NCBI GenBank assembly: GCA_038888155.1
Contig: JAWAJB010000002.1
Coordinates: forward strand, 192,001-256,000
Reading direction: 5' to 3'
Length of the DNA: 64,000 bases
Origin: Desulfurococcaceae archaeon
GTDB lineage: Archaea; Thermoproteota; Thermoprotei_A; Sulfolobales; Desulfurococcaceae
Part shown: positions 29,323 to 64,000 of the stretch, in pieces
Position numbering within the stretch: the first letter of the stretch is position 1
Layout of the letters: the number at the start of each line of letters is the position of its first letter
Made by a program: the position numbers and the translations under genes
The notes under the pieces: generated by a model
The model's database searches: none
The model's input: the letters and a program-made list of their open reading frames with translations, nothing else
What the model was told of the DNA's origin: nothing

Positions 29323-30291
29323 GTGTTATTTATGTTCTACCTAAAGGATGTGTATTCAGCTCGAAAGCGAATATCTAAGTACGTTAGAAGAACGCCCTTG
29401 GTATACTCTAAAAAGCTATCAAACCTCCTTGGCTTTAACACTTACCTTAAACTCGAGAATCACCAAGTCACAAGGGCTTTTAAAGTAAGAGGAGGTGTAA
29501 ACTACGTGTTGAGTAATGAGGATGAAGCCCTAAAGAGTGGATTAATTACGGCATCGACCGGCAACCATGCCCAGTCCATAGCATACGCTGGGTCCATTAT
29601 AGGGGCAAAAGTTGTGGTTGTGATGCCCCATGGCGTATCGAGAGTTAAGGTAGATGCTGTAAAAGACTTGGGCGCTGAGGTCATATTCTATGGAAAAGTT
29701 TTTGATGAGGCACTAGATTATGCGCTAGATTTATCCAAGAACAAAGGCATGAAATTCGTACACAGTGTGAATGAATCCCTCTTATACCCTGGAGTTGGAA
29801 CTATGCACTTAGAAGTGCTTGAGGATTTACCCGAGGTGAATGTAGTAATTAACCCTATTGGTGGAGGATCTGGGGCAAGTAGCGGAGTAATTATATACAA
29901 GACTGTTAATCCTAAGATCAAAGTCATCGGCGTTCAAGCAGAGGGGGCTCCTAGTGTTTATTTATCGATAAAGGAAGGAAAGGTCGTTTCAACGGGCGAG
30001 GCCAGGACTGCTGCTGAAGGTCTGGCTACATCAAGGGCCTATGACTTTTCTTTTAATATATTAAAGGGCAGAATAGATGACGTGGTGCTTGTAAGCGACA
30101 GGGAGATATTTCGGGCTGTAAAGCTGTTGGTTGAAACAGAGAGAGAGATCGCAGAACCAGCGGGAGCTGCTTCTTTGGCTGCTGCTCTCAAATTAAAAAA
30201 CACGGAAGACATTAATGTCGTCCTAATGGTAACAGGTGGCAACATAGATATCCCAATATTGAGTAAATTACTTCAAAGCCAGGAGGACTAA
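29323..30291 (+). CDS. PLP-dependent threonine/serine ammonia-lyase or serine racemase family (no ACT domain)
   Basis: KLENHQ..AFKVRG PLP lysine, STGNHAQ, PIGGGSG, EPAGAA, TGGNID. Confidence 0.88.
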   Translation: MLFMFYLKDVYSARKRISKYVRRTPLVYSKKLSNLLGFNTYLKLENHQVTRAFKVRGGVNYVLSNEDEALKSGLITASTGNHAQSIAYAGSIIGAKVVVVMPHGVSRVKVDAVKDLGAEVIFYGKVFDEALDYALDLSKNKGMKFVHSVNESLLYPGVGTMHLEVLEDLPEVNVVINPIGGGSGASSGVIIYKTVNPKIKVIGVQAEGAPSVYLSIKEGKVVSTGEARTAAEGLATSRAYDFSFNILKGRIDDVVLVSDREIFRAVKLLVETEREIAEPAGAASLAAALKLKNTEDINVVLMVTGGNIDIPILSKLLQSQED

Positions 30292-30382
30292 TAATCGACT
30301 CAATAATTTTATATTCTATCAAACATCATTTTGTGAAATAAATAAGTCTTTAAGTAAACATCGGCTTCAATGAGCCCTTCGG

Positions 30383-30410
30383 TATAAGTTAATTAAGGTG
30401 AAAACTTATA
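30383..30410. promoter_or_regulatory. Inverted repeat overlapping the likely TATA box of the dpp operon
   Basis: TATAAGTT-N12-AACTTATA; TTATAAA at 30406-30412. Confidence 0.35.
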
Positions 30411-30473
30411 AAGGCAAAGGTCGTATTACTCTTTTCCAAGTAAATAACTTGGCGCTAAACGCTGGGAAAGAAA

Positions 30474-31394
30474 ATGGGCTTTGGAAGATATATAATAAAA
30501 AGCCTATTGGCCTCCATACCTGTGCTTATAGGGGCTACTTTTATAGTATTTGCCCTTATTTACGTTACAGGTGACCCAGTCAGCGTAATTCTAGGAGAGT
30601 TCGCAACTCCAGAATTAGTTGAGAAGCTTAGGCAAGACCTTGGGCTAGATAAACCACTTATCGTTCAGTACTTCATTTGGTTAAGTAGGGTAATAAGAGG
30701 AGATTTTGGGGTGTCCTATATGAGCAGGCTTCCAGTAACACTAGTTGTACTAGAGAGAATCCCAACTACGCTAATGTTAACTGGAACTGCATTTCTAATT
30801 TCACTAGGCCTGGGCATTTCATCTGGCGTTCTGGCCGCCCTTCGACACGGCTCAAGGGTGGATACGATTATTAGTTCTGTTATCATATTCTTCTTCTCTG
30901 TGCCCTACTTCTGGTTCGCTACAGTTCTCTTGTGGATATTTACTGTTCAGATACGATTGTACTCTACAATCGGCGATCTCTTTCAAAGGTTGTGGTTGCC
31001 GTCTATTGCCCTAGGAGTTCCTACGGCGGCAGCGTACGCTAAGCTCACCAGATCTAATGTTATTGACACGCTTTATCAAGACTATGTTCGTACCGCTAAG
31101 TCTAAGGGTTTAAGGGAACGCATTATTATTATAAGGCACGTTCTAAAAAATGCACTATTACCTATAGTAGCTCTTGCTGTTCTGAGAATTCCATGGCTTT
31201 TTGGCGGCGCCGTAGTAACAGAATCTGTATTCGGTTGGCCCGGATTGGGTTCGCTGCTTATAACAGCAATATATAGGCGAGATTTTCCCATAGTTCAAGC
31301 CATAACATTCATTATAGTAGTTATGATTACAGTATCGGATATACTTGGTGACCTGTTAATGGCGCTTATAGACCCTAGGGTGCGAATGGGGTGA
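30474..31394 (+). CDS. dppB: Dipeptide/oligopeptide ABC transporter permease
   Basis: GLDKPL..QY, GDFG.S, DYVRTAKSKGL EAA loop, E.VFGWPGLG, IDPRV. Confidence 0.93.
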   Translation: MGFGRYIIKSLLASIPVLIGATFIVFALIYVTGDPVSVILGEFATPELVEKLRQDLGLDKPLIVQYFIWLSRVIRGDFGVSYMSRLPVTLVVLERIPTTLMLTGTAFLISLGLGISSGVLAALRHGSRVDTIISSVIIFFFSVPYFWFATVLLWIFTVQIRLYSTIGDLFQRLWLPSIALGVPTAAAYAKLTRSNVIDTLYQDYVRTAKSKGLRERIIIIRHVLKNALLPIVALAVLRIPWLFGGAVVTESVFGWPGLGSLLITAIYRRDFPIVQAITFIIVVMITVSDILGDLLMALIDPRVRMG

Positions 31395-31406
31395 CCCACT
31401 CTGGGT

Positions 31407-32273
31407 GTGCTTAAATCATCATTAGACATTATAAAAAAGAACATCATAGGAAAAACAGCAATTTTTCTCAGGGATAAGAAGAGCTTATTGAGCATTACCA
31501 TACTCTTATGCATAGTAATGTTATCTGTAATGGCCGACTATATTGCACCTTATCACTTTAACGAACAGGATCTAGCTAGAAGGTTGCAACCTCCCAGCAT
31601 GATCCACGTCTTTGGTACTGATGCTCTGGGAAGAGACATATTTTCTAGGATATTGTACGCGGGTCGCGTGACGCTCTTGTTGGGTGTAACGATAACCATA
31701 CTCACATCAATTATAGGGATCTCCTTTGGCTTGCTATCGGGTTACGTTGGTGGGTTAGTTGACCTAATTATATGCAAAATAGCTGAGATCTTTTGGGCTT
31801 TCCCAACAATAGTACTGGCCCTCGCGTTAGCCGCTGTTCTCGGCCCGAGCGTTGAAAATGTAATCCTAGTTCTTGCTATACTTATGTGGGTGCCGTTTAC
31901 TAAGGTCACTAGGGCTAAAGCGCTTGTTCTGCGTGAAATGCCATTCATTAAGTATGTAAAGGCATTGGGCCTAAACCCCTTTATAATAATAGGTAAACAC
32001 GTGTTCCCAAACTTAATATCCGATATCATTGTTTTGTTCGTGTTATCTATTCCCGATGCCATGTTGACAAGTGCGGCACTAAGTTTTTTGGGGTTAGGAG
32101 TTCAACCTCCAACGCCAGAGTGGGGTGCAATGCTGGCCGATGGTAGATTATACTTTACTAGAGCCCCTTGGATAACTATATTCCCCGGTATGTTCCTTGT
32201 TTTAACAGCCTTAAGCTTAAATATTCTTGGCGATGTACTACGTGATTTGACTGCTCCAAGGCTACGGGGGTAA
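31407..32273 (+). CDS. dppC: Dipeptide/oligopeptide ABC transporter permease
   Basis: HVFGTDALGRDIFSR, LSFLGLGVQPPTPEWG. Confidence 0.93.
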   Translation: MLKSSLDIIKKNIIGKTAIFLRDKKSLLSITILLCIVMLSVMADYIAPYHFNEQDLARRLQPPSMIHVFGTDALGRDIFSRILYAGRVTLLLGVTITILTSIIGISFGLLSGYVGGLVDLIICKIAEIFWAFPTIVLALALAAVLGPSVENVILVLAILMWVPFTKVTRAKALVLREMPFIKYVKALGLNPFIIIGKHVFPNLISDIIVLFVLSIPDAMLTSAALSFLGLGVQPPTPEWGAMLADGRLYFTRAPWITIFPGMFLVLTALSLNILGDVLRDLTAPRLRG

Positions 32274-32280: not shown

Positions 32281-33255
32281 ATGTACACGCAACTACTTCA
32301 GGTAAGGAACTTAGTGGTGTATTACGCAACTAGGCATGGAGTCGTAAAAGCCGTGGACGGCATGTCGTTTCATGTGGGCAAGGGTGAAAAAGTTTGCTTA
32401 ATAGGAGAAAGTGGTTCTGGTAAATCAACAGTAGCCCTTTCAATAATGAAGCTGTTGCCAAAAAACGCTACAGTTGAGGGGGAAATAATATTTGAAGGCA
32501 TTAATTTGCTGAACTTGAGCGAAGATGATATGCGTAAGATTAGAGGCAGTGAAATATCAATGGTGTTTCAAGATCCGCTGACTGCTCTTAATCCGCTTTT
32601 AACTATTGGGTTACAGTGTAGTGAACCTTACGAAGAACACTTGAAAATAAGTAGAAGGGAGGCTATGACCAAAGCTATTGATATGCTGAAAAAAGTGAAA
32701 ATACCATCTGCTGAAATTGCCATAAGGAGATATCCACATACATTTAGTGGCGGTATGAGGCAGAGAAGCCTTATTGCTATGATGCTTTCTCTCAAGCCTA
32801 AATTGATTGTTGCAGATGAGCCATTTTCTGCCTTAGATGTATCTCTGCAGGTAGGTGTTATGCAACTACTAAATGAATTAATAAAGGATTCGGGTGCATC
32901 GTTGTTGTTGATAACACATGATTTGGGAGTTGCCGCTGAAATGTGTGATAGAGTTGTTGTGATGTATGCTGGCAAACTCCTTGAGGAATCGGATGTCTTT
33001 AACATCTTTGATAATCCTAAGCATCCCTATACACAAGGACTTCTGAGCTCTCTCCCTACGCCAGATAAAATCCTTAAGAAATCGGAGCTACCCATGATGA
33101 GAGGGCTTCCCCCAAGCCTAGTAAACCCTCCACCTGGTTGTAGATTCCACCCTAGGTGCCCATTCGCTACAGAGAAGTGCAGCAGGGAGGAACCCCCCCT
33201 CGTTGAAATAGATAGAGGCCACAAAGTAGCTTGTTGGCTACAAAAAGGTGTTTAA
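32281..33255 (+). CDS. dppD: Dipeptide/oligopeptide ABC transporter ATP-binding subunit
   Basis: GESGSGKS, FSGGMRQR, ADEP, HPYT, C-terminal GCRFHPRC..C..VAC. Confidence 0.94.
   Translation: MYTQLLQVRNLVVYYATRHGVVKAVDGMSFHVGKGEKVCLIGESGSGKSTVALSIMKLLPKNATVEGEIIFEGINLLNLSEDDMRKIRGSEISMVFQDPLTALNPLLTIGLQCSEPYEEHLKISRREAMTKAIDMLKKVKIPSAEIAIRRYPHTFSGGMRQRSLIAMMLSLKPKLIVADEPFSALDVSLQVGVMQLLNELIKDSGASLLLITHDLGVAAEMCDRVVVMYAGKLLEESDVFNIFDNPKHPYTQGLLSSLPTPDKILKKSELPMMRGLPPSLVNPPPGCRFHPRCPFATEKCSREEPPLVEIDRGHKVACWLQKGV
33108..33235 (+). repeat. 128-bp direct repeat copy 1 (dppD 3' end)
   Basis: Matches 34079-34206 with 3 synonymous mismatches by eye. Confidence 0.92.
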
Positions 33256-33257
33256 AC

Positions 33258-34241
33258 ATGACGCTTCTAAATGTAGAAAATCTAAAGAAATACTTTCCAC
33301 TAAAAAGATTTGCATTTTTAGGGGGAGGTCTGTATGTTAGAGCTGTTGACGATGTATCTTTCACGCTAAATTATGCCGAAAGCGTGGGAATAGTTGGTGA
33401 GAGCGGTTCTGGAAAAACTACGCTTGGATACGTCGTAGCAGGTCTGGAGAAACCAACTAGTGGGAGAATGACATTAGATGGCATAGATATAACTCGTAAG
33501 ATGCCCAAGGCGTTAAGAGGGACTGTTCAAATAGTATTTCAAGACCCCAGATCCTCTTTTGATCCTAGGCTCAAGGTATTAGACTCTGTTGTAGAGCCAT
33601 TGATGATACTTGGTGGAACTAACTTAACAAAGGACGAAGCTATAGAAAGGGCTATAGAGCTCGGTAGATCAATTGGTTTAGATGAGGAGCAACTAAATAA
33701 ATATCCACATGAGTTGAGCGGCGGTCAAATTCAGAGAGTAGCCATTGCAAGGGCTTTAATAACCAACCCAAAGCTAGTCGTCCTCGATGAACCAACTTCT
33801 GCGCTAGACGTTTCGCTTAGATCTCAGATCTTAAATTTGCTGATGAAAATTAAACAACAAATGAGACTTACCTATCTAATAATATCTCACGACATGTTTA
33901 CAATTAGTTATATGAGCGAGAGAATAATGACTATGTACGCGGGTAAAGTGGTTGAAGAAGCCGTCACAGATAATATACTGAACAAACCGCTACATCCCTA
34001 TACACTGGCCCTCATTACCTCTACACCTACCCCAAACCCCCATCTTAGAAACCGTAAACGGCTGATTTTGCAGGGCGATCCCCCAAGCCTAGTAAACCCT
34101 CCACCTGGTTGTAGGTTTCACCCTAGGTGCCCATTTGCTACAGAGAAGTGCAGCAGGGAGGAACCCCCCCTCGTTGAAATAGATAGAGGCCACAAAGTAG
34201 CTTGTTACAATATTGAAAAAGTTGAAAAAGGGATTGCTTAG
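33258..34241 (+). CDS. dppF: Dipeptide/oligopeptide ABC transporter ATP-binding subunit
   Basis: GESGSGKT, LSGGQIQR, LDEPTSALD, HPYT; ATG 33258 after AGGTG RBS. Confidence 0.94.
   Translation: MTLLNVENLKKYFPLKRFAFLGGGLYVRAVDDVSFTLNYAESVGIVGESGSGKTTLGYVVAGLEKPTSGRMTLDGIDITRKMPKALRGTVQIVFQDPRSSFDPRLKVLDSVVEPLMILGGTNLTKDEAIERAIELGRSIGLDEEQLNKYPHELSGGQIQRVAIARALITNPKLVVLDEPTSALDVSLRSQILNLLMKIKQQMRLTYLIISHDMFTISYMSERIMTMYAGKVVEEAVTDNILNKPLHPYTLALITSTPTPNPHLRNRKRLILQGDPPSLVNPPPGCRFHPRCPFATEKCSREEPPLVEIDRGHKVACYNIEKVEKGIA
34079..34206 (+). repeat. 128-bp direct repeat copy 2 (dppF 3' end)
   Basis: Near-identical to 33108-33235 (offset 971). Confidence 0.92.
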
Positions 34242-34463: not shown

Positions 34464-36149
34464 GTGAAAGCGATATCGAGGACTATGATAGTTGCCCTCA
34501 TGGTTGTTATAGTGGCTATCGCTATTATAGCAGCAGTGCTAATAACGCCAACTCCTTCTCCAATCACTACTCAAACTCCAACAACAACCCCTACTCCCAC
34601 TCCTACTACGATTGGGCTGTTCAGAATAGGGCACAACTATGAACCCGATACTCTAGATCTTCACGCAACAACTTGGGCCGATATAACCTCGTCGTTGATT
34701 TACGGTACTTACTTAATACGTGATTGGCGCAATGGTGAATTTCTTGGGTACTTGGCTGAGAGATGGTGGTTTGGTGAACAGGGCAAGGAGGTCTACATCA
34801 AGCTAAAATCAAATCTAAAATTCGCTAATGGTGAGCCGATAAATGCGAGTGTAATTAAGTACACGTATGAAAGAATGCTTAGTAAAAATGCACCAACACT
34901 AGGCACTTTCGGCAAGCTGGAGCGTGTTGAAGTGGTTGATAACCTCACAGCCAAACTGGTGTTTAAAGAACCTTTTGCCCCACTATTGATAACATTAATA
35001 AATAGCTATCACGGCGTTTTTCCACCCGGGTATATTGGCTCTGTTGGCGATATTGAGTTCGGCCGCAAGCCCCTCAGCGCAGGCTATTTCTACGTTGTAG
35101 AGTGGAAAGTTGGGGATTATATCCTTTATGAACGTAACCCACATTACATAAGGAGAGCTGATGTCGGGGGACAAGGGCCTTTACCCATTGAGAAGATACA
35201 ATTAAAGTTTATACGGGATCCCGCAGGCCTGGTATCATCCTTGCTGGCAGGAGACGTTGATTTAATAACTACTATACCCCCAGATCTTTACCCCGAGCTT
35301 CTCCAAAGAAATGGATCAGATATAATTGTTGCTACATACCCCGGCATTCAACTAAACTACTTTGGTTTCAACACCATTAAGTGGCCATTCAGCGACGTTA
35401 ATGTAAGGCGCGCAGTATCGGTAGTTCTGGGAGGCACAGATATACGCGAGGGACTAAATCAGATCTTAAGTGGATTAACGTACCCTATATGGGGTCCTCT
35501 TGTACCCACAATAGCTGGCTACAATGGAGAAATGGAGAAATATGCTCAGGATGTAAATTACTATAACTTATCTTTGTCTGAGAGAATAAAGAAGGCTCAC
35601 GAAATCCTCAAGGCAGCTGGATGGGAGGACCGAGATGGCGACGGCATATTAGAGTACACTAACGGAACTAAATTCGAGTTCCCGCTGCTAGTACCTAGCG
35701 AATTTTTTGATGTTAAAGAGGCTGAATTCTTGACAAACATTTTAGGCCAAGCTGGTATGAAATTCAATATACAAGTCATGGATACTGTAACGATAAGAGA
35801 CAAATATTTATTAAAAGCGGAACACTATGCTTTTCTATACATATATGGTTACCAGGATGCCATGATACTGAGGTATCTTTTCCACAGTACCGGCGTCAAA
35901 AGAACGTGGTTTAATACCCCTGAACTCGATGAATTACTTGATAAAGTTACTACAGTTGTTGATCCAGTAGAAAGACAGAAGTATATAGATGCAGCTCAAA
36001 AGATATTAATTGACAATTCGCCGTGGGTACCTCTATATGCTCCCAAGTCTGCTATGGCCTGGCGCTCTGAGTACACAGGTTTGATAATTAACGAATACGA
36101 AGGAGGGACTCTACTCTTCGAGCTAGTGTCTAAGAAAATTGGGGGCTAA
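34464..36149 (+). CDS. dppA: Family 5 peptide ABC transporter substrate-binding protein
   Basis: N-terminal hydrophobic anchor, Thr/Pro linker, LKFANGEPINA, PFSDVNVRRAV, DRDGDGILE. Confidence 0.9.
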   Translation: MKAISRTMIVALMVVIVAIAIIAAVLITPTPSPITTQTPTTTPTPTPTTIGLFRIGHNYEPDTLDLHATTWADITSSLIYGTYLIRDWRNGEFLGYLAERWWFGEQGKEVYIKLKSNLKFANGEPINASVIKYTYERMLSKNAPTLGTFGKLERVEVVDNLTAKLVFKEPFAPLLITLINSYHGVFPPGYIGSVGDIEFGRKPLSAGYFYVVEWKVGDYILYERNPHYIRRADVGGQGPLPIEKIQLKFIRDPAGLVSSLLAGDVDLITTIPPDLYPELLQRNGSDIIVATYPGIQLNYFGFNTIKWPFSDVNVRRAVSVVLGGTDIREGLNQILSGLTYPIWGPLVPTIAGYNGEMEKYAQDVNYYNLSLSERIKKAHEILKAAGWEDRDGDGILEYTNGTKFEFPLLVPSEFFDVKEAEFLTNILGQAGMKFNIQVMDTVTIRDKYLLKAEHYAFLYIYGYQDAMILRYLFHSTGVKRTWFNTPELDELLDKVTTVVDPVERQKYIDAAQKILIDNSPWVPLYAPKSAMAWRSEYTGLIINEYEGGTLLFELVSKKIGG

Positions 36150-36214: not shown

Positions 36215-37111
36215 TTGACAGACAATCTTGAAAAGATCATCCAAGAGACTTCGCTTAAATTTATTGAGAGATACAAAGCTCGAGTAGGTATAGGTGTTAA
36301 GGACCTTAAAAGCGGAAAGGAATATTACATAAATGGAGATATTCGCTTCCAGCCTGCTAGCGTATTCAAGATATTTATACTTTCAACGCTATATGATCAA
36401 GCTGTAAAAGGCAACGTAGATTTAGATAAAATGATCTCCATTGATGATCAAGAAATATCTCCAGGCTCCGGTATATTAAGACATTTTACAGGTAAGTATT
36501 CTTTTAAAATAAGGGATCTAGCTGGACTTATGATGATCTTAAGTGATAATACTGCTACAGACCTTATTCTCAATTTAGTTGGCAAAGATAATGTTAATGA
36601 AACTATTAAAAGATATGGGCTTCATGACTCCAAGGTAGTATATTCATGCAAAGAGCTGATTTTCAAAGCTTTGGGTACAAGCGATCCTCGGCTGTTAGCT
36701 CGAAGGCTTAAGTCAAGGAGACCGAAGATTGATCTAGACTTTCTTAGAAACTACGAAACCAACAATGTAACAACACCCCGGGATATAGTGAAGATATTAG
36801 AGCTTCTTTATTACAGAAAAATTCTAACTCCAGTGGCTTGCAATGAGATTATTGACATCATGAAAAGGTGCCAAACCGGTGAGGCGAGAATGAAAAGATA
36901 TCTGCCGCCAAGCGTAGAGGTAGCTCATAAAACTGGAACTATTGCTGGCATTGTAAACGACGCTGGAATAGTGTTTTGCGGTAAAAGAGATTTCATTCTC
37001 GCAATTTTCCTCAATGAAATTCCTCTCCGCAATGGCCGCTATGTTGCTATTGGAGAAGACTTTATTGCTAAACTATCGTATAAAGTTTATAGGGCCATAA
37101 TATCTTCGTAG
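36215..37111 (+). CDS. Class A beta-lactamase-fold serine hydrolase, no signal peptide
   Basis: SxxK (PASVFK), SDN (LSDNTATD), TTPRD, KTG (AHKTGT), NDAGIV. Confidence 0.9.
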   Translation: MTDNLEKIIQETSLKFIERYKARVGIGVKDLKSGKEYYINGDIRFQPASVFKIFILSTLYDQAVKGNVDLDKMISIDDQEISPGSGILRHFTGKYSFKIRDLAGLMMILSDNTATDLILNLVGKDNVNETIKRYGLHDSKVVYSCKELIFKALGTSDPRLLARRLKSRRPKIDLDFLRNYETNNVTTPRDIVKILELLYYRKILTPVACNEIIDIMKRCQTGEARMKRYLPPSVEVAHKTGTIAGIVNDAGIVFCGKRDFILAIFLNEIPLRNGRYVAIGEDFIAKLSYKVYRAIISS

Positions 37112-41152: not shown

Positions 41153-41164
41153 GAGAAGATCCCT

Positions 41165-54791: not shown

Positions 54792-55919
54792 ATGAAAATT
54801 ACTCAAGTAGATATTATTCCACTTAGCGTTCCTTCTTCAAGGCCATTAAAAGTTGGAACATATGGAGAATTGGGTGAAAAGTTAAACTTCATAATGAGCA
54901 AAGTCTACACAGACGAAGGTATAGTTGGCTATGGCGAGGCTCCTCCGCTTCCGCCACTATCACCTGAATCGCAAGAAGTTATAGTAGGAGTACTACAGAA
55001 AAGAATAGTTCCTTCAATCCTAGGGGAGGATCCCTTTGATCATGAGGGTATTTGGGAAAAGATGGATTTTGTAGCACCTACTTATCCTATGGCAAAGTCT
55101 GTGATCGATATTGCTTTGTATGATATAGTGGGTAAAGCACTTAACATTCCATTATATAAATTCCTCGGCGGAGGATCCAATAAAAAATTCCCAGTGGTTG
55201 GATTAATTGGCCTTGGGACCACGGATTTAGTAGTTAACGAAGCCAGGAGGCTCGTAAGTGAGGGCTATAAAGGGTTAAGGCTCAAGATTAGCCCTGGAAG
55301 GGATGTTGAGCTAGTGAAAGCAGTTCGTCAAGAAATTGGAGATGATGTGACCATACGTGTTGACGCCAATCAAAGCTACTCAAAGTACAGGGCAATAAGA
55401 ACGATAAGAGCTATTGAGAGATATGAAGTCGAACTTGTAGAACAACCTACACCTTGGTGGGATTTCAAGGGCTTAGCTGAAGTCGCTAAATCTGTCGACA
55501 CGCCAATTATGCCGCATGAATCCCTATATTTAATTTCAGATGTTAAAGCCTTAATCGATCTAGAAGCCCTCGAAGTCCTAGGATTAAAAGTTTATAGACC
55601 TGGCGGCGGTATAACTAGCGCGAAAAAATTAATTAACATGGCGCAAATATTAAACATTCCATGCTTACTCCACGATGATATAGAGCTTGGGGTTTCATTG
55701 GCAGCTGCAGCGCATTTCATTGTGGCAAATTATAGGAACATTAAATTGAAGTGCGAACTTTCTGGTTATCCCGATTGGATAGGCGATGAAGTAATCAAGA
55801 CGCCTGTAAAGATAGTTAAAGGATTTGCTGAGGCACCAGAAGGACCTGGTCTAGGAGTTGAACTCGACGACGAAAAAGTTAAAAAGTACTCTAAAGGAAT
55901 TATAACTTGCAAATTATGA
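54792..55919 (+). CDS. Enolase superfamily, muconate-lactonizing/dipeptide epimerase subgroup, non-canonical motifs
   Basis: TDEGIVGYGE, IDIALYDIVGK, RVDAN, EQP, GPGLGVELD. Confidence 0.9.
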   Translation: MKITQVDIIPLSVPSSRPLKVGTYGELGEKLNFIMSKVYTDEGIVGYGEAPPLPPLSPESQEVIVGVLQKRIVPSILGEDPFDHEGIWEKMDFVAPTYPMAKSVIDIALYDIVGKALNIPLYKFLGGGSNKKFPVVGLIGLGTTDLVVNEARRLVSEGYKGLRLKISPGRDVELVKAVRQEIGDDVTIRVDANQSYSKYRAIRTIRAIERYEVELVEQPTPWWDFKGLAEVAKSVDTPIMPHESLYLISDVKALIDLEALEVLGLKVYRPGGGITSAKKLINMAQILNIPCLLHDDIELGVSLAAAAHFIVANYRNIKLKCELSGYPDWIGDEVIKTPVKIVKGFAEAPEGPGLGVELDDEKVKKYSKGIITCKL

Positions 55920-55987: not shown

Positions 55988-57262
55988 CTAAACTGAGGAG
56001 ATTAAATTTAGATATAGCTCCGCGTAGATCTTAGAAGCTGTGACAATGTTGTTGACCTCAATGTATTCATTGGGGGCATGCACTCCAACGGCGCCTGGAC
56101 CATATGTTGCAACTTCATAGCCCTTCATTAGATAATATATCATATCTAGCCCATTGAAGCATACAACCTTATCAGGTTTTACTCCTGTTATGTTTGCTGA
56201 AGACCTTTCAATAGCTTCATACAATTTTAAATTTGGATCAGCAACAGCCGACTCCTGGGATAAGATCAGATTTGTCTCGACATCGATGCCCAATTCCTTG
56301 GCTTTAATAGCTATAAATTCCTCTATTTCCCTCCAAGCATCTTCAACAGTTTCTTCAGGGATAACCCTCCTATCTATACTAAAAATTACTTCACCGGGGA
56401 CTTGGTTGATCTTTTCTCCTCCCTTTAGTAACCCTCCTATCATTAAAGTAGCCTTTGAGGCCTCTTCAATATCATATTTGAACTTGCTCCTTTTGCTTTC
56501 AACCTTTGGAACTAGTTCGTCGAACATTTTAACTGCTAAGCGAGAAGCTCTCTCAAAAGCATTTACACCTAGCCAAGGAGATGCACCATGAGCTGTTTTG
56601 CCCTTAACGATAACTAATCCCCTAATGCGTCCCTTTTGGCCAATGTAAATCCTATTCAACCCCGTTGGTTCAGCGATAACCACATATCTCCCTCTGACCT
56701 TGTTATTCTCGGTAATGTACTGCGTCCCAGTTTCACCGCCGATCTCCTCATCTGGTACCAGGAAGATCTCGATCCCGTAACCAGTTTTATCAATAGCACC
56801 TAGGAGCCCTACAATTGATAAGATTGTTGCTGTTATCCCTCCCTTCATGTCTCCTGCCCCTCTTCCAAATACTTTCCCATCTATTAGTTTTGGCTTAAAT
56901 GGCTCTGTTACAGTCCAGCCGGGACCGCCTGCGACAACATCATAGTGCCCGTTAAAGTGTAAAATGGTGTTTCTCGAATCCCCCACTCTAATTATTGCTA
57001 GGTACCTTGGTTTACTCTTTCCCTCAGCTGGCAACCTGGGGTCTGTATATTCTGAAGGAATAGTCTCTATAGTGACGATAATACCGTAATCCTTTAGAAA
57101 GTCTCTAATTAACTCTACAAATTCTTTGTAATTGGTGCCCTCGGGTGATATTGTGGACAACGAGATCATATCGAGAAATAGTTTCACAAAGTTGTCAGCT
57201 TCCCTGCTTATGGTTCCATAAATCTTCTCTTTATTAATATAGGTCATGTTTGCACTACCCAC
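55988..57262 (-). CDS. M20 metallopeptidase, DapE/ArgE family (copy 3, divergent)
   Basis: HFNGHYDVV, GRGAGDMKGG, DEEIGG, AEP, HAPNE. Confidence 0.92.
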   Translation of the reverse strand: MGSANMTYINKEKIYGTISREADNFVKLFLDMISLSTISPEGTNYKEFVELIRDFLKDYGIIVTIETIPSEYTDPRLPAEGKSKPRYLAIIRVGDSRNTILHFNGHYDVVAGGPGWTVTEPFKPKLIDGKVFGRGAGDMKGGITATILSIVGLLGAIDKTGYGIEIFLVPDEEIGGETGTQYITENNKVRGRYVVIAEPTGLNRIYIGQKGRIRGLVIVKGKTAHGASPWLGVNAFERASRLAVKMFDELVPKVESKRSKFKYDIEEASKATLMIGGLLKGGEKINQVPGEVIFSIDRRVIPEETVEDAWREIEEFIAIKAKELGIDVETNLILSQESAVADPNLKLYEAIERSSANITGVKPDKVVCFNGLDMIYYLMKGYEVATYGPGAVGVHAPNEYIEVNNIVTASKIYAELYLNLISSV

Positions 57263-57363
57263 ATTTTTAATATCCGACGTATAAATAAATTTGTCTACAT
57301 CTTCATAGTCAATAATGAAACAAAGAGATAACAGCGATAACGGGAAATCAAGGTTTTCCTTCT

Positions 57364-58074
57364 TTACTTGGGCCCCCTTTCCAGCTCTTCCTTGATGCGA
57401 TTCCTTAGCTCCTTTATTTTACTTAGGTTTTCCTTTATTTTCTCGAGCCATTCTTTCGATGCCTCAATGCCTTTCCTAGTGAAAAACGCCACTGCTTCGC
57501 TACGGCTCTTAAATATACCGGCCTCTACCAGCTCGTCGATGATCATTGCATCTTCATCCCTTAGCCTTATTGACGAGATAACTGTAGACAAAGACTCTAA
57601 AGCGCTTCTAGTTTCATTAATTGCAAATCTCACAGTTTCTTCTAGTTCCTTTCCAACAACTTCTGCAAGCCTCCAAGGCAAAGTAGTAATCGCACTCCAT
57701 GTAGATCTCCTTTTAATCTTGATCTCCGGGTATTTTTCCTCGATGTATTTAATGACTTCTCCGTATTTATCTTGGAATTCCTTTATCATTGTCTTCATAT
57801 ACTCCTCCAAGCTTCTAGTAGCATCAATCACAGCCATGTCGTTGAACTTTTTGGCTTCCTCCATTATTTCTCTCACTCCTCGCCTAGTCTCAATTAATGC
57901 GTCTTCGAAATAGTCTACAATGTGTTCTAGTTTCCTATAAAGCCTCATTACTTTTTGTGGAGTGAGCCAATCGGAGACCTCTGATCTAAGGACCTCGAGC
58001 TCTTCTAACGCCTTTTTAAAGGCTCTCTCAAGTCTATCCTTTATTAATTTCAATTCATTTTTTGTGTCAGACAT
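57364..58074 (-). CDS. Coiled-coil protein with C-terminal ribbon-helix-helix/CopG-like domain
   Basis: IRLRDEDAMIIDELVEAGIFKSRSEAVAFF; ATG 58074 after GTGGT RBS-like sequence (ORF track starts at 58281). Confidence 0.75.
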   Translation of the reverse strand: MSDTKNELKLIKDRLERAFKKALEELEVLRSEVSDWLTPQKVMRLYRKLEHIVDYFEDALIETRRGVREIMEEAKKFNDMAVIDATRSLEEYMKTMIKEFQDKYGEVIKYIEEKYPEIKIKRRSTWSAITTLPWRLAEVVGKELEETVRFAINETRSALESLSTVISSIRLRDEDAMIIDELVEAGIFKSRSEAVAFFTRKGIEASKEWLEKIKENLSKIKELRNRIKEELERGPK

Positions 58075-58368
58075 ATTACCACATCTCTTGTAATTTTGTA
58101 AAAACAACCTATAAAATTTTTCTAATACAAATCGCGACAAAGCAAACAATTTTTGATCCTTCAATCTTGGAGTTCTTTGCGCTTGTGTAATTGATGAGCA
58201 CAATCTATTATTAACGTGATATAAACTGGTAAAAACTGGTCCGATTAGACTGACGTTTAACCAACTATTGATTTCTTGCACGCAGGCAATTCTACAGGAT
58301 TTTTATGTCGAAAATTACATTATAGACCTCGCCCATAAATTTGAATTAAGTAAAAATAATTTTTTAAA

Positions 58369-58857
58369 CTATGGTTCAACATCGAATGGTATCTCTAATA
58401 GCTCTTTGGAGGCCCTAAATCTTACCTTACCTATTTTAATTTTACCTATGTCCCTAGAGGAGATAGTGTGCTGTTTGTTGCATGCATTGATATTCCATAT
58501 CTCCCCGTTAGTATCATATACTATGAGAATATGCAAGGTTTGTACCTCATCCGGTATTGGAAATAAATCATAAATTATGTTACCGTAATTTGATTCCGCT
58601 TCTTTACGCGACATTACCTTAATCTCGATTTTAAGGTCCTCGGCTATTTTTTTATTTGTTAAATCTTCTATTAACTTTATTTCCTCCGGGCTAGGCGCTT
58701 TATTGAATCTAACTGTAAGTCTGCCGTGCTTGCCATTAACATACACACCAGCAGTCCACATAGCGCTCGGTCCAAGGACTCTTACAACTGATCCTTTCAA
58801 CAGATGGAGAGCCGTGTGGGTGCGAACTTCATCAGTGTAATTCATCTGCTCCTTCAA
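58369..58857 (-). CDS. alaXS: Alanyl-tRNA editing protein AlaX-S
   Basis: EVRTHTALH (HxxxH) and NACNKQH (CxxxH) Zn ligands, YDLFP, KVRFR; resembles Pyrococcus AlaX-S. Confidence 0.88.
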   Translation of the reverse strand: MKEQMNYTDEVRTHTALHLLKGSVVRVLGPSAMWTAGVYVNGKHGRLTVRFNKAPSPEEIKLIEDLTNKKIAEDLKIEIKVMSRKEAESNYGNIIYDLFPIPDEVQTLHILIVYDTNGEIWNINACNKQHTISSRDIGKIKIGKVRFRASKELLEIPFDVEP

Positions 58858-58941
58858 TCCATGTGCACCGCAGAAGTATATTTACAATAATTGTTTTAAA
58901 AATTTTTGAGTCATGTTGCGTAATACACAGGATGCTTGAGA

Positions 58942-60186
58942 TCATTTGGTAAATTTAGAGAATATGTAGTAAATCAAACCTGTTACTGCCATTGAGGGCA
59001 GAGTTGCACCTAGCCAAGGCAAATAAGCCGAAATGATTACATAAAGGCCGAACCCAATAAACCACGATGCAATCCCAGGATATCTCAGCTGTTGTGCCTT
59101 TTCGCCGATTAGTTCTTCGATTTCATATTTTTTCCTGCATACCGCAAAGTAATCTATGATCATAATTGATGCTAAGGGAACGAAAGCCCCACCGATAAGT
59201 AGCAGGAACCATTCGTACTCTTGCATAGGGAAAATGAGAGCAATAGCTGTTCCTAGTAAACCCACGAATAAAATTTGTCTTCTAAGCGATTCACGGGGTC
59301 TTACATTCTTAAAGGTTATGGCAGCAGAATATATATCTAAGAACGTAGTAGTTGTAGTTGACAATAGCACAATCAGCATTGCCGGTATCCCCAGTCCATA
59401 AACAGCGATAATTCCTATCGGATCACCTATACCTAAGTACATGTTTGATATCCCGCCTACAAAATAAAACAAGCTACTAGTTATGAAGTACCCAAGAAAT
59501 GTACTCCAGAAAGCACCTCCCTTTACGAGTCTTGAGTAATCAGCGACAAGGGGTAACCAAGAAACTGGCATCGCCACAACCAGGTCCAAGGCTTGTAGTT
59601 CGGTCAAATCGCCTGTACTGTAATGCCAATTTACAAAGCCTATATTGCCAACAACTACAGTCGTAAGCCAAACAATGAGAACTAGTAGCATGAGAGCAGA
59701 TATTCTTTCGAGCCACCTCCACTTTTTGGGTCCTACAACGGTCCAAAAAGTATTGAGCAATCCGAAAACTATTATCCATAAACTGAAATTCGACGGATAC
59801 CCGAGAGCTATGAAAACGGTATCTAAGGCTCTTGCACCAACGATATTCATGACAGCAGTCCAGCCAATTAGTTGCAAGTAGTTGAGCAGGGATGCTAAGA
59901 ATGATCCCTTCACACCAAGCGGTCTTCGCGAAAGAACCATTGTTGGGACGCCAACTTGATATCCCTCTAATGCCACAAGTCCCATTAACGCATTACCTAT
60001 TATGTGCCCAATTATTATTACAACCAATGCTGAAAACAGTGAAACTCCAGGTACCAACAACGCGCCAGCCCAAAACTCAGCTATAGAAATGCCTGCTCCA
60101 AACCAAATTGCCAGCAGATCCCATGAATTTAGGAATCTCTGTGAGTGGGACACGGGCTCAATTCGGCTACTCGCATCTTCGCTCAT
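58942..60186 (-). CDS. cytX: NCS1 family permease, CytX-like (putative hydroxymethylpyrimidine transporter)
   Basis: WFGAGISIAE, LQLIGWTAVM, AMPVSWLPLVADYSR, STTTTTFLDIYSA. Confidence 0.82.
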   Translation of the reverse strand: MSEDASSRIEPVSHSQRFLNSWDLLAIWFGAGISIAEFWAGALLVPGVSLFSALVVIIIGHIIGNALMGLVALEGYQVGVPTMVLSRRPLGVKGSFLASLLNYLQLIGWTAVMNIVGARALDTVFIALGYPSNFSLWIIVFGLLNTFWTVVGPKKWRWLERISALMLLVLIVWLTTVVVGNIGFVNWHYSTGDLTELQALDLVVAMPVSWLPLVADYSRLVKGGAFWSTFLGYFITSSLFYFVGGISNMYLGIGDPIGIIAVYGLGIPAMLIVLLSTTTTTFLDIYSAAITFKNVRPRESLRRQILFVGLLGTAIALIFPMQEYEWFLLLIGGAFVPLASIMIIDYFAVCRKKYEIEELIGEKAQQLRYPGIASWFIGFGLYVIISAYLPWLGATLPSMAVTGLIYYIFSKFTK

Positions 60187-61017: not shown

Positions 61018-61320
61018 ACTTTTTTGGACTTAAACACCAAAATGTTGTAGAAATAGGGAATTGGCTATCAGAAATTTCTAGGTAAACGTTAAGCAAAGAA
61101 CAAAAAATGATTGATTTGGTTAATACACCGTGAATTACTATTAAATAGTGCTCGACAGGCTCGCTAGGGTATACGAAAGGCAGGGTAAAGTAAAAGAAGA
61201 TCGTGTCAGACTGCCAATCAAAGTGTAACATAGTAAGAAAAGAGTACCTTTTAAAAAATAAAGAGACAGTTAAAAAAAAATAATGAAGCAGATTGGAGCT
61301 TTTATGCACACGTAAAAAAA

Positions 61321-62796
61321 TTAAGAGTGCCCCGCGCTCTCTCTTCTTTTAGCCACTGCCTCACTAATTTCATACACAAAGCTCTTGAATTTGTTAATAA
61401 TATTTTCATCGTTGGGATCTATCGTTGAAAATACCCCGCGATTCCAAACGGTTATCAAGGGTTTAATTGCATTCTCCCGATACCTGCAGTAATACCTTAT
61501 AACGACATCTGATAATACCTCATTTCTTCTAACCCACCCTTCACTGATTCTTGTTGTTAAATGTATCACTAGCTTTCCATTGTTCTTAAGCCATGCATAT
61601 AGAGCGGAAATATTGTTCCAATATTTGGTCTTGTCTTTAGTTCTTATCCATATATTCTCTGCCTCATTGATAACTATTATGCCTGGATTATACTTCTCGA
61701 TCGCTCCTCGTATATGCGAGATCAACTCCTCCAGCGGGTACCTCGATGGATTTATCGACTCGAAAAAGAAGTAGTTTTCAACAACCCATCGAATTTCCTC
61801 CCTTTTAAGACTCGTATACTCGGCTAAAACCCTGTAAGGAATCATCATTTTAAATTCGTGGGGTGACCACTTGAAGGAGAACACCAATATTTTTAAGTCA
61901 TTAAATAGAGCAAGAGCGATTATAGGTATAAATATATCAACATTACGTGCATATGGAGGAGCGCTGTTTGTTATCACATCCCCACTATAAATGCTTCCAA
62001 TAAGATGCTTCCACAATTCAAGTCCCCGTAGCTCCTTAGACAGCGTTACTAGAGGTCTTACTGGAGTTGGCGGAACGTGCAAATCAATGCCCCTACTTTG
62101 CATAATTGTGAAAGGTATCTCGGCTAACAGTATCGGTGAGCCACGGGCTTTCCTGATCTCAAGCGAGCGTGAGATAAGCCCTCCATGTTTTTTGAGCCTT
62201 AGTGCGAGTACGATATCGGAGACGAACTCCGCGCCCCCAAGATCTTGAACCTCCTTGTTCATTTGTATCTCTGCTACCAAAACCAGAAGTCCATTAACAA
62301 TTTTATCTAAATGGTAAAAGAAATTCAGTAAAACAGCTCTCTTTGTCTCCAGAGCTTCTATAAGCTCTAATATTGGATTTACTGAGTCTATCACCACTAT
62401 GCTATAGCTACTTTTTACAACTAAATGGCTAATAGTATTCATTATCTCTTCGGGTGAGGCTACTGGTAGTTTAACGTAAGTTAGTAGCTGCTTGCTCTCC
62501 GCTTCCTGCAAGTTTATTCCCAGCTTTCCCATGTTCCTGTACAGCTTTTCTTTATCCTCGTAGAAAGTTATGAAGAGGCACTTGTGGCCCCTGAGAGCAT
62601 TTGAGTAGCAGATCTTGGAGGCAAGAGTAGTCTTTCCGGAGCCGGGGTGACCTACAATTAGAAGCATGGACTTGGATGGAATATCGCCGAGCAATTCATC
62701 TAGGCCAGAAATACCTGTGATGAACGAAGTACTCACTTTTATCACTTGATGATTTTCGGATGTCTTCATGTACAATATATTTGTATTGATGAACAA
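61321..62796 (-). CDS. KaiC/RAD55-family ATPase, tandem domains, second degenerate
   Basis: TGISGLDELL, Walker A GHPGSGKT, VVIDS, EFVSDIVL, LEIRKARG; second domain lacks a Walker A. Confidence 0.85.
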   Translation of the reverse strand: MFINTNILYMKTSENHQVIKVSTSFITGISGLDELLGDIPSKSMLLIVGHPGSGKTTLASKICYSNALRGHKCLFITFYEDKEKLYRNMGKLGINLQEAESKQLLTYVKLPVASPEEIMNTISHLVVKSSYSIVVIDSVNPILELIEALETKRAVLLNFFYHLDKIVNGLLVLVAEIQMNKEVQDLGGAEFVSDIVLALRLKKHGGLISRSLEIRKARGSPILLAEIPFTIMQSRGIDLHVPPTPVRPLVTLSKELRGLELWKHLIGSIYSGDVITNSAPPYARNVDIFIPIIALALFNDLKILVFSFKWSPHEFKMMIPYRVLAEYTSLKREEIRWVVENYFFFESINPSRYPLEELISHIRGAIEKYNPGIIVINEAENIWIRTKDKTKYWNNISALYAWLKNNGKLVIHLTTRISEGWVRRNEVLSDVVIRYYCRYRENAIKPLITVWNRGVFSTIDPNDENIINKFKSFVYEISEAVAKRRESAGHS

Positions 62797-62977
62797 TATA
62801 AAAATTTAACGCATAATACTTTATTTTGCTTTTCTCTACCCGATCCATTCAACTTAATATTAAGTAATTTTTAAGTAAATGGTAAATAGACTAATCGACA
62901 AATTGTCCACTCCTCCTAGATGGGGATGACGTTATGGTAGTATAAGCCCAATAAGTGTTTATTTGTTTTTGGTAATC

Positions 62978-64000
62978 CTAAGCCAATGGCTCCCTCAGTA
63001 AGACTCTTCCTGCTAACGTTTTATTGTACTTTGAGTTCTCAACAACTATAGTACCGTTGACTAGTACGTATTTTATCCCGCTAGGCGGCTGCCTAGGATC
63101 GCCTAGAAGGGGATGATCTAGCTCGACAACGTTAAATACAACGATATCAGCATAGTAGCCTTGCTTGATGCCCCCCCTTCTAGCTAGACCAGCAATTCTT
63201 GCAGGTATGCTAGTTAGTTTTTCTATGGCCTCCTCTATAGGTAAAATATTTTTCTCAACCACATATTTCTTTATAAACCTAGGGAAGCAGCCGTAAGTAT
63301 TAGGATGTGGAAGATAGTACGGAGGGACCTTTAACTCCCATTGCATCCCCAAGTTAAACGTGTCTGTTACAACAGCAGAGATCTTATGCTTTATAGCTTC
63401 CTCAAGAGAGGCTTCATGTAGCTCTAACATTCTGTTGATCTCAATTTCAGTTGTTGGGTCTTCGGAGAGTAAATCTAATATAAGATCTACAATGTCCTTG
63501 TTTAATTTCTCGGAGACTTCATATAATGTGAATCCTGAGATCCCGTCTACATTGCTTTTAACTATTGTTATATGTTTAGCTAAATCAGTTATATAGAATG
63601 GGTTAAGAGAGTATATTTTACCCTCTTGAATATTCCTCTTAACTTCATCTCTATAATCCTTAGCTCTCAATAAATTTCCTAATCGTTCGAGGTTGCCTGC
63701 GTCCCGGATGCATGGAGATAACAGTGATGCAAGGTATTTTATTTTAAAGACGCCGCCCGTTTCCGTGGGAATAACATCGAATCCTATCTCAAGACCCGAT
63801 TCACGAGCTTTCTCAATGGTTTTTATAGTTTCGCGGGCAGAAACCCTCCATAATTCCTCATTATCAGGGTAAACTATGTAGCCGGGCAATAGATGCGAGA
63901 TCTCTACCCTTATCCCAGCCTTTCTTCCTACTTCAATGGCCTCTATTATTCCTTCAATTTTACGTGGCAATAATTTCGAGGTTCCTCTTCTTATACCCGT
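62978..64000 (-). CDS. N-acyl-D-amino-acid deacylase family amidohydrolase (copy 2, 5' end outside window)
   Basis: EISHL, FDVIP, PHPNTYGCFPR, ADIVVF, GIKYVLVNG; frame open to window end. Confidence 0.85.
   Translation of the reverse strand, partial: TGIRRGTSKLLPRKIEGIIEAIEVGRKAGIRVEISHLLPGYIVYPDNEELWRVSARETIKTIEKARESGLEIGFDVIPTETGGVFKIKYLASLLSPCIRDAGNLERLGNLLRAKDYRDEVKRNIQEGKIYSLNPFYITDLAKHITIVKSNVDGISGFTLYEVSEKLNKDIVDLILDLLSEDPTTEIEINRMLELHEASLEEAIKHKISAVVTDTFNLGMQWELKVPPYYLPHPNTYGCFPRFIKKYVVEKNILPIEEAIEKLTSIPARIAGLARRGGIKQGYYADIVVFNVVELDHPLLGDPRQPPSGIKYVLVNGTIVVENSKYNKTLAGRVLLREPLA

Follow-up and report, generated by a model that had tools for sequence, protein, structure and literature searches.

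Why would an archaeon that has no murein encode, beside a Dpp-type importer, a serine hydrolase of the class A β-lactamase fold and an enzyme of the D-aminoacylase family? The question is raised by a stretch of 64,000 nucleotides (nt) from a Desulfurococcaceae archaeon (assembly GCA_038888155.1). This stretch, hereafter the window, spans positions 192001-256000 of contig JAWAJB010000002.1 (C2), and its genes were called from a listing of open reading frames (ORFs) and from Pfam and NCBIfam scans. An initial annotation had taken the 29.3-64 kb part of it for one island that imports D-residue-containing peptides, possibly fragments of bacterial murein, and converts them to usable amino acids. 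In our analysis the core of this region, from 30.5 to 38.8 kb, on balance probably serves as a cassette for salvaging small peptides or N-acyl amino acids that contain D-residues. This part of the proposal is sustained by the enzyme families involved and by a linkage conserved in other genomes, whereas neither the wide island nor a specificity for murein is.

Gene content of the core

The gene content and order of the core can be read directly from the DNA. Eight genes lie on the same strand between 29323 and 38830 (+), with intergenic gaps of at most 222 bp. The first (29323..30291) encodes a pyridoxal phosphate (PLP) enzyme of fold type II from the Ser/Thr dehydratase / serine racemase family (PALP, 238 bits). 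It is followed by a DppB-type permease (30474..31394; BPD_transp_1 and BPD_transp_1_N), a DppC-type permease (31407..32273; BPD_transp_1 and OppC_N) and the ATPases DppD (32281..33255) and DppF (33231..34241), both with ABC_tran and oligo_HPY domains and with reading frames that overlap by 25 bp. A family-5 solute-binding protein (SBP) comes next (34464..36149; SBP_bac_5, 190 bits), then a class-A-β-lactamase / PBP-A-like serine hydrolase of 298 aa (36215..37111; Beta-lactamase2, PF13354, 196 bits) and finally a D-aminoacylase-family metallo-amidohydrolase of 540 aa (37208..38830; Amidohydro_3). The Pfam and NCBIfam matches bear out the list of core genes given in the initial annotation (PLP enzyme, dpp genes, SxxK hydrolase and D-aminoacylase).

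The serine hydrolase carries the motifs S49-V-F-K52, S110-D-N112 and K239-T-G241, all of which are invariant in 31 relatives. Since the ORF already makes use of the first start available behind the upstream stop and the N-terminus is a hydrophilic rather than a hydrophobic helix, the protein has no signal peptide, in agreement with the signal-less SxxK/SDN/KTG enzyme claimed previously. It scores below the cut-off of the NCBIfam class A model (NF033103 bla_class_A, 144.4 bits against 200) and far under those of all named class A subfamily models. Relatives are few (61%, 51% and then at most 47% identity), come mostly from metagenomes and are called, where the source gives a name, 'beta-lactamase class A' or 'serine hydrolase'. 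A profile of the 31 relatives retrieves 4ewf, an uncharacterised protein from Sphaerobacter (E 6e-53), followed by PBP-A (2j9o/2j7v, E 6e-47). A Foldseek search with the AlphaFold model (pLDDT 94) likewise has 4ewf, 6v4w and PBP-A at its top: the uncharacterised structural-genomics entries 4ewf and 6v4w score higher than PBP-A, which occupies ranks 6-10 with TM scores of 0.77-0.89, and class A enzymes reach 0.77-0.80. By profile and by Foldseek alike, PBP-A ranks ahead of the true β-lactamases. Judged from these sequence and model comparisons, the nearest characterised relative of the hydrolase is the DD-peptidase PBP-A, and since the protein has neither signal nor anchor we regard it as a predicted cytoplasmic relative of a DD-peptidase. 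It belongs to an uncharacterised family, and a signal-less class-A-type hydrolase of the cytoplasm is a new element in a cassette of this kind.

PBP-A is described as a membrane-anchored DD-carboxy/endopeptidase close to the class A β-lactamases (PMC11189452). The protein of Thermosynechococcus elongatus (Tll2115) has the fold and the SxxK, SDN and KTG motifs in common with the window hydrolase. It is held by an N-terminal anchor outside the membrane, where it meets the murein of its own cell, whereas the window hydrolase has no signal or anchor and belongs to a murein-less organism. The two proteins are ~24% identical, and at the place of the Omega loop the window enzyme has a helical segment of ~35 residues: profile matches to solved enzymes skip query residues ~139-172, and the model has three short helices at 145-177. 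In a quick tree the hydrolase sits on a long branch, nearest to rows from Thermococcaceae and from a genus of the same order, and falls in no starred clade. On one metagenome contig (L138:947-2688) two class-A-like hydrolase genes stand in tandem, 38% and 40% identical to that of the window.

The amidohydrolase matches 9g5m, the N-acyl-D-Glu deacylase 3gip and the D-aminoacylase 1m7j in the PDB with E-values of 7e-84 to 5e-82. When aligned to 9g5m, its motifs DMHSH (HxH), GNCG, THMR, SHLK and GSD, with the bridging Cys, the two His and the catalytic Asp among them, are all in register, and the substrate motifs 'dvYPYtag' (YPY) and 'phpRaygtfprvlg' (the Arg of PHPR) also align with the solved enzyme. 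Metal ligands, a bridging Cys, and the YPY and Arg that bind the carboxylate of the D-amino acid are the features by which a 2025 review defines deacylases for N-acyl-D-amino acids as a family (PMC12149444). The protein stays below the curated cut-off of NF006560 (PRK09061; 228.8 bits against 340) and contains an unaligned insert at approximately residues 300-393 of its 540. It is a clear homologue of solved D-aminoacylases, with a predicted activity of that type.

The binding protein starts with a membrane helix followed by a Thr/Pro-rich linker, an arrangement of the archaeal anchoring type as read from its translation, and is predicted to be extracellular and anchored in the membrane. A second copy of the SBP, dppC and dppB genes, 58-63% identical to those of the window, is present farther along the same contig (C2:281090-284782; locus L091:5090-8782); in the 20-kb locus around it no ATPase genes were found by tblastn.

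Conservation of the gene combination

A single-protein search of genome contigs returned no relative of the hydrolase, and it was an alignment-based scan that recovered the 80 genome loci with a hydrolase homologue that form our base set. dppB/C genes are found in 12 of these 80 loci and a D-aminoacylase homologue in 15. Addition of six loci from the window's own class, the window included, gave 86 rows that were compared within a limit of 8 kb around the hydrolase gene. At this distance dpp genes are present in 17/86 rows, an amidohydrolase gene in 16/86, either of them in 25/86 and both in 8/86; for comparison, bases equally close to dpp and amidohydrolase genes make up 5.9% and 2.4%, respectively, of the assembly from which the window comes. 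Because of the relatedness among rows and the short length of many contigs, these counts describe the linkage and are not a statistical test. dpp genes are linked to the hydrolase in both Thermococcaceae loci (amidohydrolase in 1/2), in all four from same-order Thermoprotei (amidohydrolase in 1/4), in 9/37 from other bacteria, mostly Clostridia (amidohydrolase in 10/37), and in 1/11 from Chloroflexota (amidohydrolase also 1/11); among other archaea and same-class genomes the count is 0/4 for either gene.

Linked genes are thus seen in Thermococcaceae, in the same-order genomes G219-221, in Clostridia, Dialister and Caldilineaceae, and on the hot metagenome contigs L133 and L134. The order amidohydrolase-SBP-dppBCDF-hydrolase occurs in the same-order genomes G219-221, explicitly in G220, and in Dialister (L065). 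In the Thermococcaceae locus L001, hydrolase-SBP-dppBCDF-amidohydrolase is followed by the gene of a Pab87-type CubicO peptidase (PF00144 + Pab87_oct), and in Sedimentibacter (L005) an enolase-superfamily (MR_MLE) gene precedes amidohydrolase-hydrolase-SBP-dppBCDF. L134 has dppBCDF-SBP-hydrolase in the same order as the window; in L133, which adjoins an archaeal-type ATPase, amidohydrolase-dppBCDF diverges from SBP-hydrolase. These two metagenome loci are the closest cassettes, with identities of 67-68% for the SBP, 54-70% for the dpp products (64-66% for DppB), 57% for the amidohydrolase and 50-51% for the hydrolase. Some metagenome loci duplicate contigs of metagenome-assembled genomes, as in the case of L135, whose layout and length are those of L106. 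The gene-neighbourhood comparison proposed with the initial annotation therefore finds that dpp plus hydrolase, in part with D-aminoacylase, recurs across two domains of life.

Known D-specific enzyme families accompany the cassette in some of the related loci. Members of the M55 D-aminopeptidase cluster occur in L062 (the only one scanned with Pfam), L047 and L073, and MR_MLE homologues in L005 (confirmed by Pfam) and L040 (by tblastn only). This company supports the predicted role in salvage of D-residues. The hydrolase neighbours in Bathyarchaeia (2-hydroxyacid dehydrogenase, MFS, thymidylate kinase, SOD and others) were also considered; they have the look of lineage synteny and gave no functional lead.

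Within the window's class the hydrolase family occurs in 8 of 351 genomes, and no real match was found among 40 nearer relatives. Since it lies in a genome-specific region and is most similar to the cassettes of other hyperthermophilic archaea, the cassette was probably acquired by transfer. More tentatively, the signal-less PF13354 proteins might represent a distinct family of cytoplasmic D-peptidases with descent from PBP-A-like wall enzymes, encoded in a mobile Dpp cassette, often together with D-aminoacylase, that bacteria and two or more archaeal phyla exchange. We consider this a possible though rather doubtful extension; if true, hyperthermophiles without murein would gain food from bacterial wall peptides or from heat-racemised peptides.

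A predicted route for D-residue peptides

Family membership and gene context suggest a substrate class, a specificity for D-residues and an order of reactions. The membrane-anchored family-5 binding protein would catch the substrate outside the cell and DppBC/DppDF would import it. In the cytoplasm, the PBP-A-like hydrolase could then cut a D-configured peptide bond, either as a D-Ala-D-Ala-type carboxypeptidase or as a D-aminopeptidase, and the D-aminoacylase-family zinc amidohydrolase would free the D-amino acid from the remaining N-acyl-D-Xaa or X-D-Xaa. The freed amino acids would finally enter peptide fermentation. AOR, IorAB (IOR) and the ADP-forming acetyl-CoA synthetase (ACS) are encoded 10-25 kb upstream of the core, and by this gene set the organism looks like an anaerobic peptide fermenter.

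Several observations weigh against such a route. Dpp-type importers of archaea are known to carry sugars as well. The ligand of the SBP cannot be read from its sequence; solved structures match at a distance only (best E 4e-25) and their ligands are varied, including peptides, opines, nickel and glutathione. For the deacylating Glu166 (and Asn170) of the class A Omega loop the hydrolase has a candidate counterpart at most: in many relatives an acidic residue followed by Asn stands ahead of a conserved NVTTP, though the column varies. The solved relatives of the amidohydrolase include a carbohydrate de-N-acetylase (9kb1/9kb3, E ~5e-73), and PF07969 as a whole is functionally mixed (PMC13081902). 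With respect to the linkage, neither partner lies within 8 kb in 61 of the 86 hydrolase rows, which are interrelated, often on short contigs and compared with a background drawn from one genome; for Bathyarchaeia, where many contigs are short, the counts are 0/27 for dpp and 2/27 for amidohydrolase. In favour of the route, contigs of one RNA library are identical to 32316-32640 (dppD), 34494-36138 (SBP), 42233-43490 (an M20 gene) and parts of the hydrolase gene; they cover parts of the stretch only and are a weak hint of expression in nature, not proof of transcription. Finally, and again on the negative side, no match to S66 (PF02016), NlpC/P60 (PF00877) or VanX-type M15 (PF01427) was obtained from the assembly, which is 97% complete, the same models having matched 7, 9 and 3, respectively, of 14 reference genomes used as positive controls.

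The missing S66, VanX-type M15 and NlpC/P60 enzymes weaken the idea of a complete murein-stem pathway. The substrates of D-residue salvage could be bacterial wall peptides or peptides that are heat-racemised or N-blocked, and because these three families were not found an origin from murein is no better supported than one from heat-racemised or N-acylated peptides. A Pyrococcus abyssi enzyme is tabulated as an N-acyl-D-aspartate deacylase (PMC12149444), a listing that by analogy would fit heat-racemised peptides at least as well as murein.

Could the locus instead serve ordinary uptake of L-oligopeptides, with both hydrolases acting as general peptidases or deacylases, for example on N-blocked L-peptides? 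The fermentative gene set of the window (AOR, IorAB, ADP-forming ACS) would suit this explanation, as would the ~9 dppB homologues in the whole 2.42-Mb assembly, the unreadable ligand of the SBP and the fact that the adjacent M20 and carbamoylase genes are of families in which the characterised enzymes use L-substrates. However, characterised members of the two hydrolase families are D-specific or act on D-Ala-D-Ala, related loci contain M55 and Pab87-type D-peptidases as well as epimerases, and L-peptidases would need no such repeatedly co-transferred pair, so that we judge simple L-peptide feeding to be unlikely.

A non-peptide amide, such as an N-acylated sugar or a lactam, is another candidate substrate. 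The amidohydrolase would then be a de-N-acylase, like the de-N-acetylase among its relatives, and the serine enzyme an esterase or lactamase; family-5 SBPs do bind opines and other non-peptides, and class-A-fold enzymes do hydrolyse lactams. On the other hand, the cassette is joined in other genomes by genes for M55 and Pab87-type peptidases and for amino-acid racemases/epimerases, no glycosidases were noted in the neighbourhoods examined, and a β-lactamase would be without obvious benefit for a murein-less cell. A substrate of this type is very unlikely in our view, and salvage of D-residue peptides or N-acyl amino acids is the reading retained below.

Relation to known systems

The initial annotation saw no described archaeal pathway in this region. 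Such a pathway had, however, been proposed for the locus of Pab87, a D-stereospecific enzyme of P. abyssi that cleaves the terminal D-Ala off muropeptides at 90 °C: the gene context given there comprises the PLP aminotransferase PAB0086, the D-aminoacylase PAB0090 and the dpp genes PAB0091-95, and enzymes of this kind are suggested to act on D-peptides that the cell debris of bacteria provides (Delfosse et al. 2009, PMC2651629). For a class-A-type hydrolase in this role we found no description in the accessible literature, subscription papers and supplements excepted, and the Pab87 paper was the sole precedent found there.

The two loci share a murein-less archaeal host, a Dpp-type importer with a D-aminoacylase-family enzyme and a PLP enzyme nearby, a serine peptidase of the penicillin-recognising fold without export signal, and the proposed role in feeding. 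They differ in the serine peptidase itself, which in the window is of the class-A/PBP-A type (PF13354, 298 aa), whereas Pab87 is an S12 enzyme of the class-C type with a lipocalin octamerisation domain; in the PLP enzyme, of fold type II here and an aminotransferase there; and in gene order. An S12 CubicO peptidase (PF00144 with the Pab87 octamerisation domain) is absent from the window cassette, the genome's Pab87-like copy being on contig C3 (C3:163565-164548). In the Thermococcaceae locus L001 a class-A-like gene and a Pab87-type gene occur in one dpp/D-aminoacylase cluster. We would class the core as a variant of the archaeal Pab87-type locus for D-peptide salvage, with a class-A/PBP-A-like hydrolase in the role of the serine peptidase.

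A Dpp-type importer beside a D-aminoacylase gene is found in the window and also on contig C5 and in a genome of the same genus (G004). The C5 cluster (C5:1579-15203, locus L089) contains a KaiC-like ATPase, a class-III aminotransferase (Aminotran_3), an SBP, dppBCDF, an Asp/Glu/hydantoin racemase and two divergently placed D-aminoacylase homologues (45-46% identity). Its resemblance to the P. abyssi context in the literature is closer than that of the window cassette.

The dpp-ykf operon of Bacillus subtilis, which serves to recycle murein peptides, encodes the M55 D-aminopeptidase DppA, the importer DppBCDE, the LD-carboxypeptidase YkfA, the L-Ala-D/L-Glu epimerase YkfB and the endopeptidase YkfC. 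As in that system, a Dpp importer is co-encoded in the window with cytoplasmic peptide-processing enzymes, which by analogy may be D-specific, and some of the Clostridia cassette loci contain M55 and enolase-type epimerase genes. In the window genome, by contrast, the M55 gene is on another contig (C1) and the enolase-family gene lies 16 kb off, in a unit of its own; dpp-ykf for its part lacks counterparts of the serine hydrolase and the D-aminoacylase, and searches of the assembly for S66 and NlpC/P60 found neither. DppA is also mentioned in the Pab87 paper (PMC2651629).

D-amino acids are a sizeable and hard-to-digest share of dissolved and sedimentary organic nitrogen. What is known of their use by archaea comes chiefly from free D-amino acids in Pyrococcus, where P. 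horikoshii makes regulated use of them via racemases (PMC6047364, PMC13628549), and from the one structural paper on Pab87. A compact cassette of an importer and two hydrolases, conserved from gut Clostridia to hot-spring Thermoprotei, is a testable system with three soluble proteins and thermostable relatives in culturable Thermococcus. It would give a physiological role to a family to which resistance-gene pipelines give the label 'beta-lactamase class A' and whose carriers include organisms without a penicillin target.

Genome context

The assembly, of 2.42 Mb in 134 contigs, is 97% complete with 6.4% contamination and is thus larger than those of its genus relatives (1.2-1.5 Mb). The GC content of its contigs varies between 0.35 and 0.51. 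Duplicate tRNAs, such as five tRNA-Ser(gct), are found on small contigs, so that these contigs probably include other populations. These figures might suggest that a bacterial or otherwise foreign contig has been mis-binned with the archaeon. The cassette, however, is located on a contig of 306 kb (C2), and on that contig window positions 1-19 kb share synteny with genomes of the same genus at 64-73% nucleotide identity. There is no overlap between the tRNA sets of the large contigs C1-C4, the anchor and Thr/Pro linker of the SBP are of the archaeal type, and the closest cassettes are archaeal. Moreover, the stretch is found at 100% identity in the DNA runs of two studies. A binning artefact is accordingly extremely improbable. 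Pieces of the same genes from a relative with 90-95% identity are present in a fourth study, and all matching DNA runs are labelled as hot springs.

Synteny ends at ~19 kb (C2:211000), and between 29 and 49 kb only scattered gene-level matches to same-genus genomes remain. From the synteny of the first 19 kb and its subsequent loss, we infer that C2 belongs to the archaeon and that the cassette lies in a genome-specific accessory stretch. IorA (19313-21253), IorB and the ADP-forming ACS have their best match, at 62%, in another family of the order and reach ~42% within the genus. Mis-binning of C2, considered on account of this low identity of IorA to the same-genus copies, was rejected on the DNA synteny of window positions 1-19 kb. 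In run X2, a DNA contig with a depth of 35 joins position 29253 to 41945 and so skips 12.7 kb comprising the cassette and the aldolase/SIS/kinase unit behind it. The join has 22 letters on one side, which is below the reliability bar, and was not used; it may be a repeat artefact or a cassette-less variant. A scan for sigma-70 promoters and terminators gave 36 sites against 29 expected and was uninformative in an archaeal host.

Genes flanking the core

The PLP enzyme at the head of the same-strand run has no regulatory domain and falls below the cut-off of every NCBIfam equivalog. Its best PDB match is a 'probable serine racemase' (6lut, E 2e-55), followed by Thr deaminases. No counterpart lies beside the cassette in any related locus examined, and homologues with 65-67% nucleotide identity are present in three same-genus genomes without the cassette. 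For these reasons we take the gene to be a neighbour and not a part of the cassette: the PLP lyase/racemase that the initial annotation had included in the run is indeed adjacent to it, but is not conserved with it. Directly upstream, an ACT-domain protein is encoded at 28433..29128 (+; ACT_7, E 5e-11), of which a 61% paralogue fragment exists on contig C113. It may be an amino-acid-sensing regulator, and its membership in the cassette is uncertain.

Downstream of the core the genes are arranged in separately oriented units. The first, at 39577..42118 (+), encodes an HpcH/HpaI aldolase, a SIS-domain protein and a PfkB kinase of a sugar or sugar-acid type. At 42251..47350 (-) there follow a fucose/arabinose-isomerase-like protein, DUF6917, a thiamine pyrophosphate (TPP) enzyme and an M20 hydrolase of the DapE/ArgE type, and at 48332..53918 (-) an M20 carbamoylase-family amidase, a threonine-synthase-like PLP enzyme, a second M20 DapE/ArgE-type hydrolase and an MFS transporter. 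A single gene at 54792..55919 (+) encodes an enolase-superfamily enzyme of the MLE subgroup (MR_MLE_N/C). The next unit (55988..60186, -) comprises an NCS1 permease, two proteins of no known family and a third M20 DapE/ArgE-type hydrolase. A KaiC-like ATPase (61321..62796, -) then precedes a second D-aminoacylase-family gene (62978..64000, -; Amidohydro_3), which is cut by the window end, its whole ORF being 593 aa, and whose product shares 38% identity with the first copy at residues 123-538 and 54% at residues 6-103.

The individual genes that the initial annotation had named in this part were for the most part recovered. The three DapE-like M20 hydrolases (42251-43489, 49693-50940 and 55988-57262, all -) are present, all of them above the NF006400 cut-off. 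The second D-aminoacylase and the enolase-superfamily racemase/epimerase gene (54792-55919, +) also occur, in the families that had been named. The claimed N-carbamoylase exists as an M20 carbamoylase-family gene (52587-53918, -), but its best solved relative is the N-carbamoyl-L-amino acid hydrolase 3n5f (E 4e-88), and it belongs to the L-specific family. The second PLP gene is a PALP gene (51192-52478, -), but one of the threonine-synthase-like kind. The earlier list had left out the aldolase, SIS, PfkB, TPP, DUF6917, isomerase-like, MFS, NCS1 and KaiC-like genes.

Less convincing is the single 35-kb island for murein-fragment import and D-amino acid conversion. Its appeal lies in the clustering of amidohydrolase-type genes, with 3/6 M20 homologues and 2/4 D-aminoacylase-family homologues of the 2.42-Mb assembly within these 35 kb, in an MR_MLE enzyme near N-succinylamino acid racemases and dipeptide epimerases with an M20 gene alongside, and in the absence of the region from the syntenic backbone of the genus. 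The M20 counts are, however, not independent, because the genes at 42251-43489 and 49693-50940 encode 73% identical paralogues. The span is only partly coherent, in that it breaks into at least six separately oriented units and its part from 39.6 to 47.4 kb is of a sugar type; the carbamoylase is of an L-carbamoylase family, no GNAT succinyltransferase is found among the neighbours, in no related locus do the other units accompany the cassette, and the assembly gave no match to S66, M15 or NlpC/P60. We hold the wide island to be quite unlikely. Apart from the sugar genes, which are unrelated, the units between 39 and 64 kb, two of which pair a transporter (MFS or NCS1) with M20 hydrolases, may well serve uptake of modified amino acids; proximity is their sole tie to the core cassette or to D-residues. 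At the DNA level the two paralogous M20 genes are 80% identical over 1.2 kb, a recent duplication with the copies in different units.

The MR_MLE enzyme matches 2qde, 2p88, 3jva, 1jpm and 1r0m with E-values of 5e-54 to 9e-38, its nearest solved relatives being N-succinyl/N-acyl amino acid racemases and dipeptide epimerases. Racemases of the N-succinylamino acid type match better than YkfB (1jpm, E 5e-39), and the epimerase equivalogs give 109 and 43 bits (cut-offs 500 and 343). In the N-succinylamino acid racemase pathway of Geobacillus and Bacillus cereus, a racemase, a GNAT succinyltransferase and an M20 L-desuccinylase together convert D- to L-amino acids irreversibly. The window enzyme matches that of B. 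cereus (2p88, E 9e-53) and its gene abuts an M20 DapE/ArgE-type gene; in contrast to that pathway no acyltransferase gene lies beside it, and the MR_MLE/M20 pairing is not conserved in 15 related loci. The MR_MLE gene was not found in 16 same-genus genomes, and 16 of 351 class genomes have a match, with at most 36% identity. Racemase/D-acylase pairs are used in industrial resolutions, and in one of the 15 loci (L113, G050:C3:52409-56518), the only one with a D-aminoacylase homologue beside MR_MLE, the MR_MLE homologue (36%) stands directly next to the D-aminoacylase homologue (38%) on the same strand. A check for a hydantoin (hyu) system found an L-carbamoylase-family gene and an NCS1 permease in separate units, an Asp/Glu/hydantoin racemase on C5 only, and no hydantoinase equivalog in the NCBIfam scan of the window proteins.

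A few genes of the wider span gave minor leads. For five small or unknown ORFs nothing usable was obtained from Pfam at E-values up to 5. The product of 57364-58281 has an RHH-like lead in Atlas (score 0.90). The 426-aa protein of 46070-47350 (-) has no Pfam match above threshold and is fucose/arabinose isomerase-like by language model (0.96) and by structure (TM 0.8-0.9). In the NCS1/M20 unit, the 162-aa product of 58369-58857 (-) shows a faint match (E 0.14) to the second additional domain of Thr/Ala-tRNA synthetase and has a 31% paralogue on contig C1. The KaiC-like ATPase gene (61321-62796) adjoins the second D-aminoacylase-family gene, and a 50% paralogue (L089:1579-2967) heads the dpp/D-aminoacylase cluster of C5; this ATPase could be a shared regulator.

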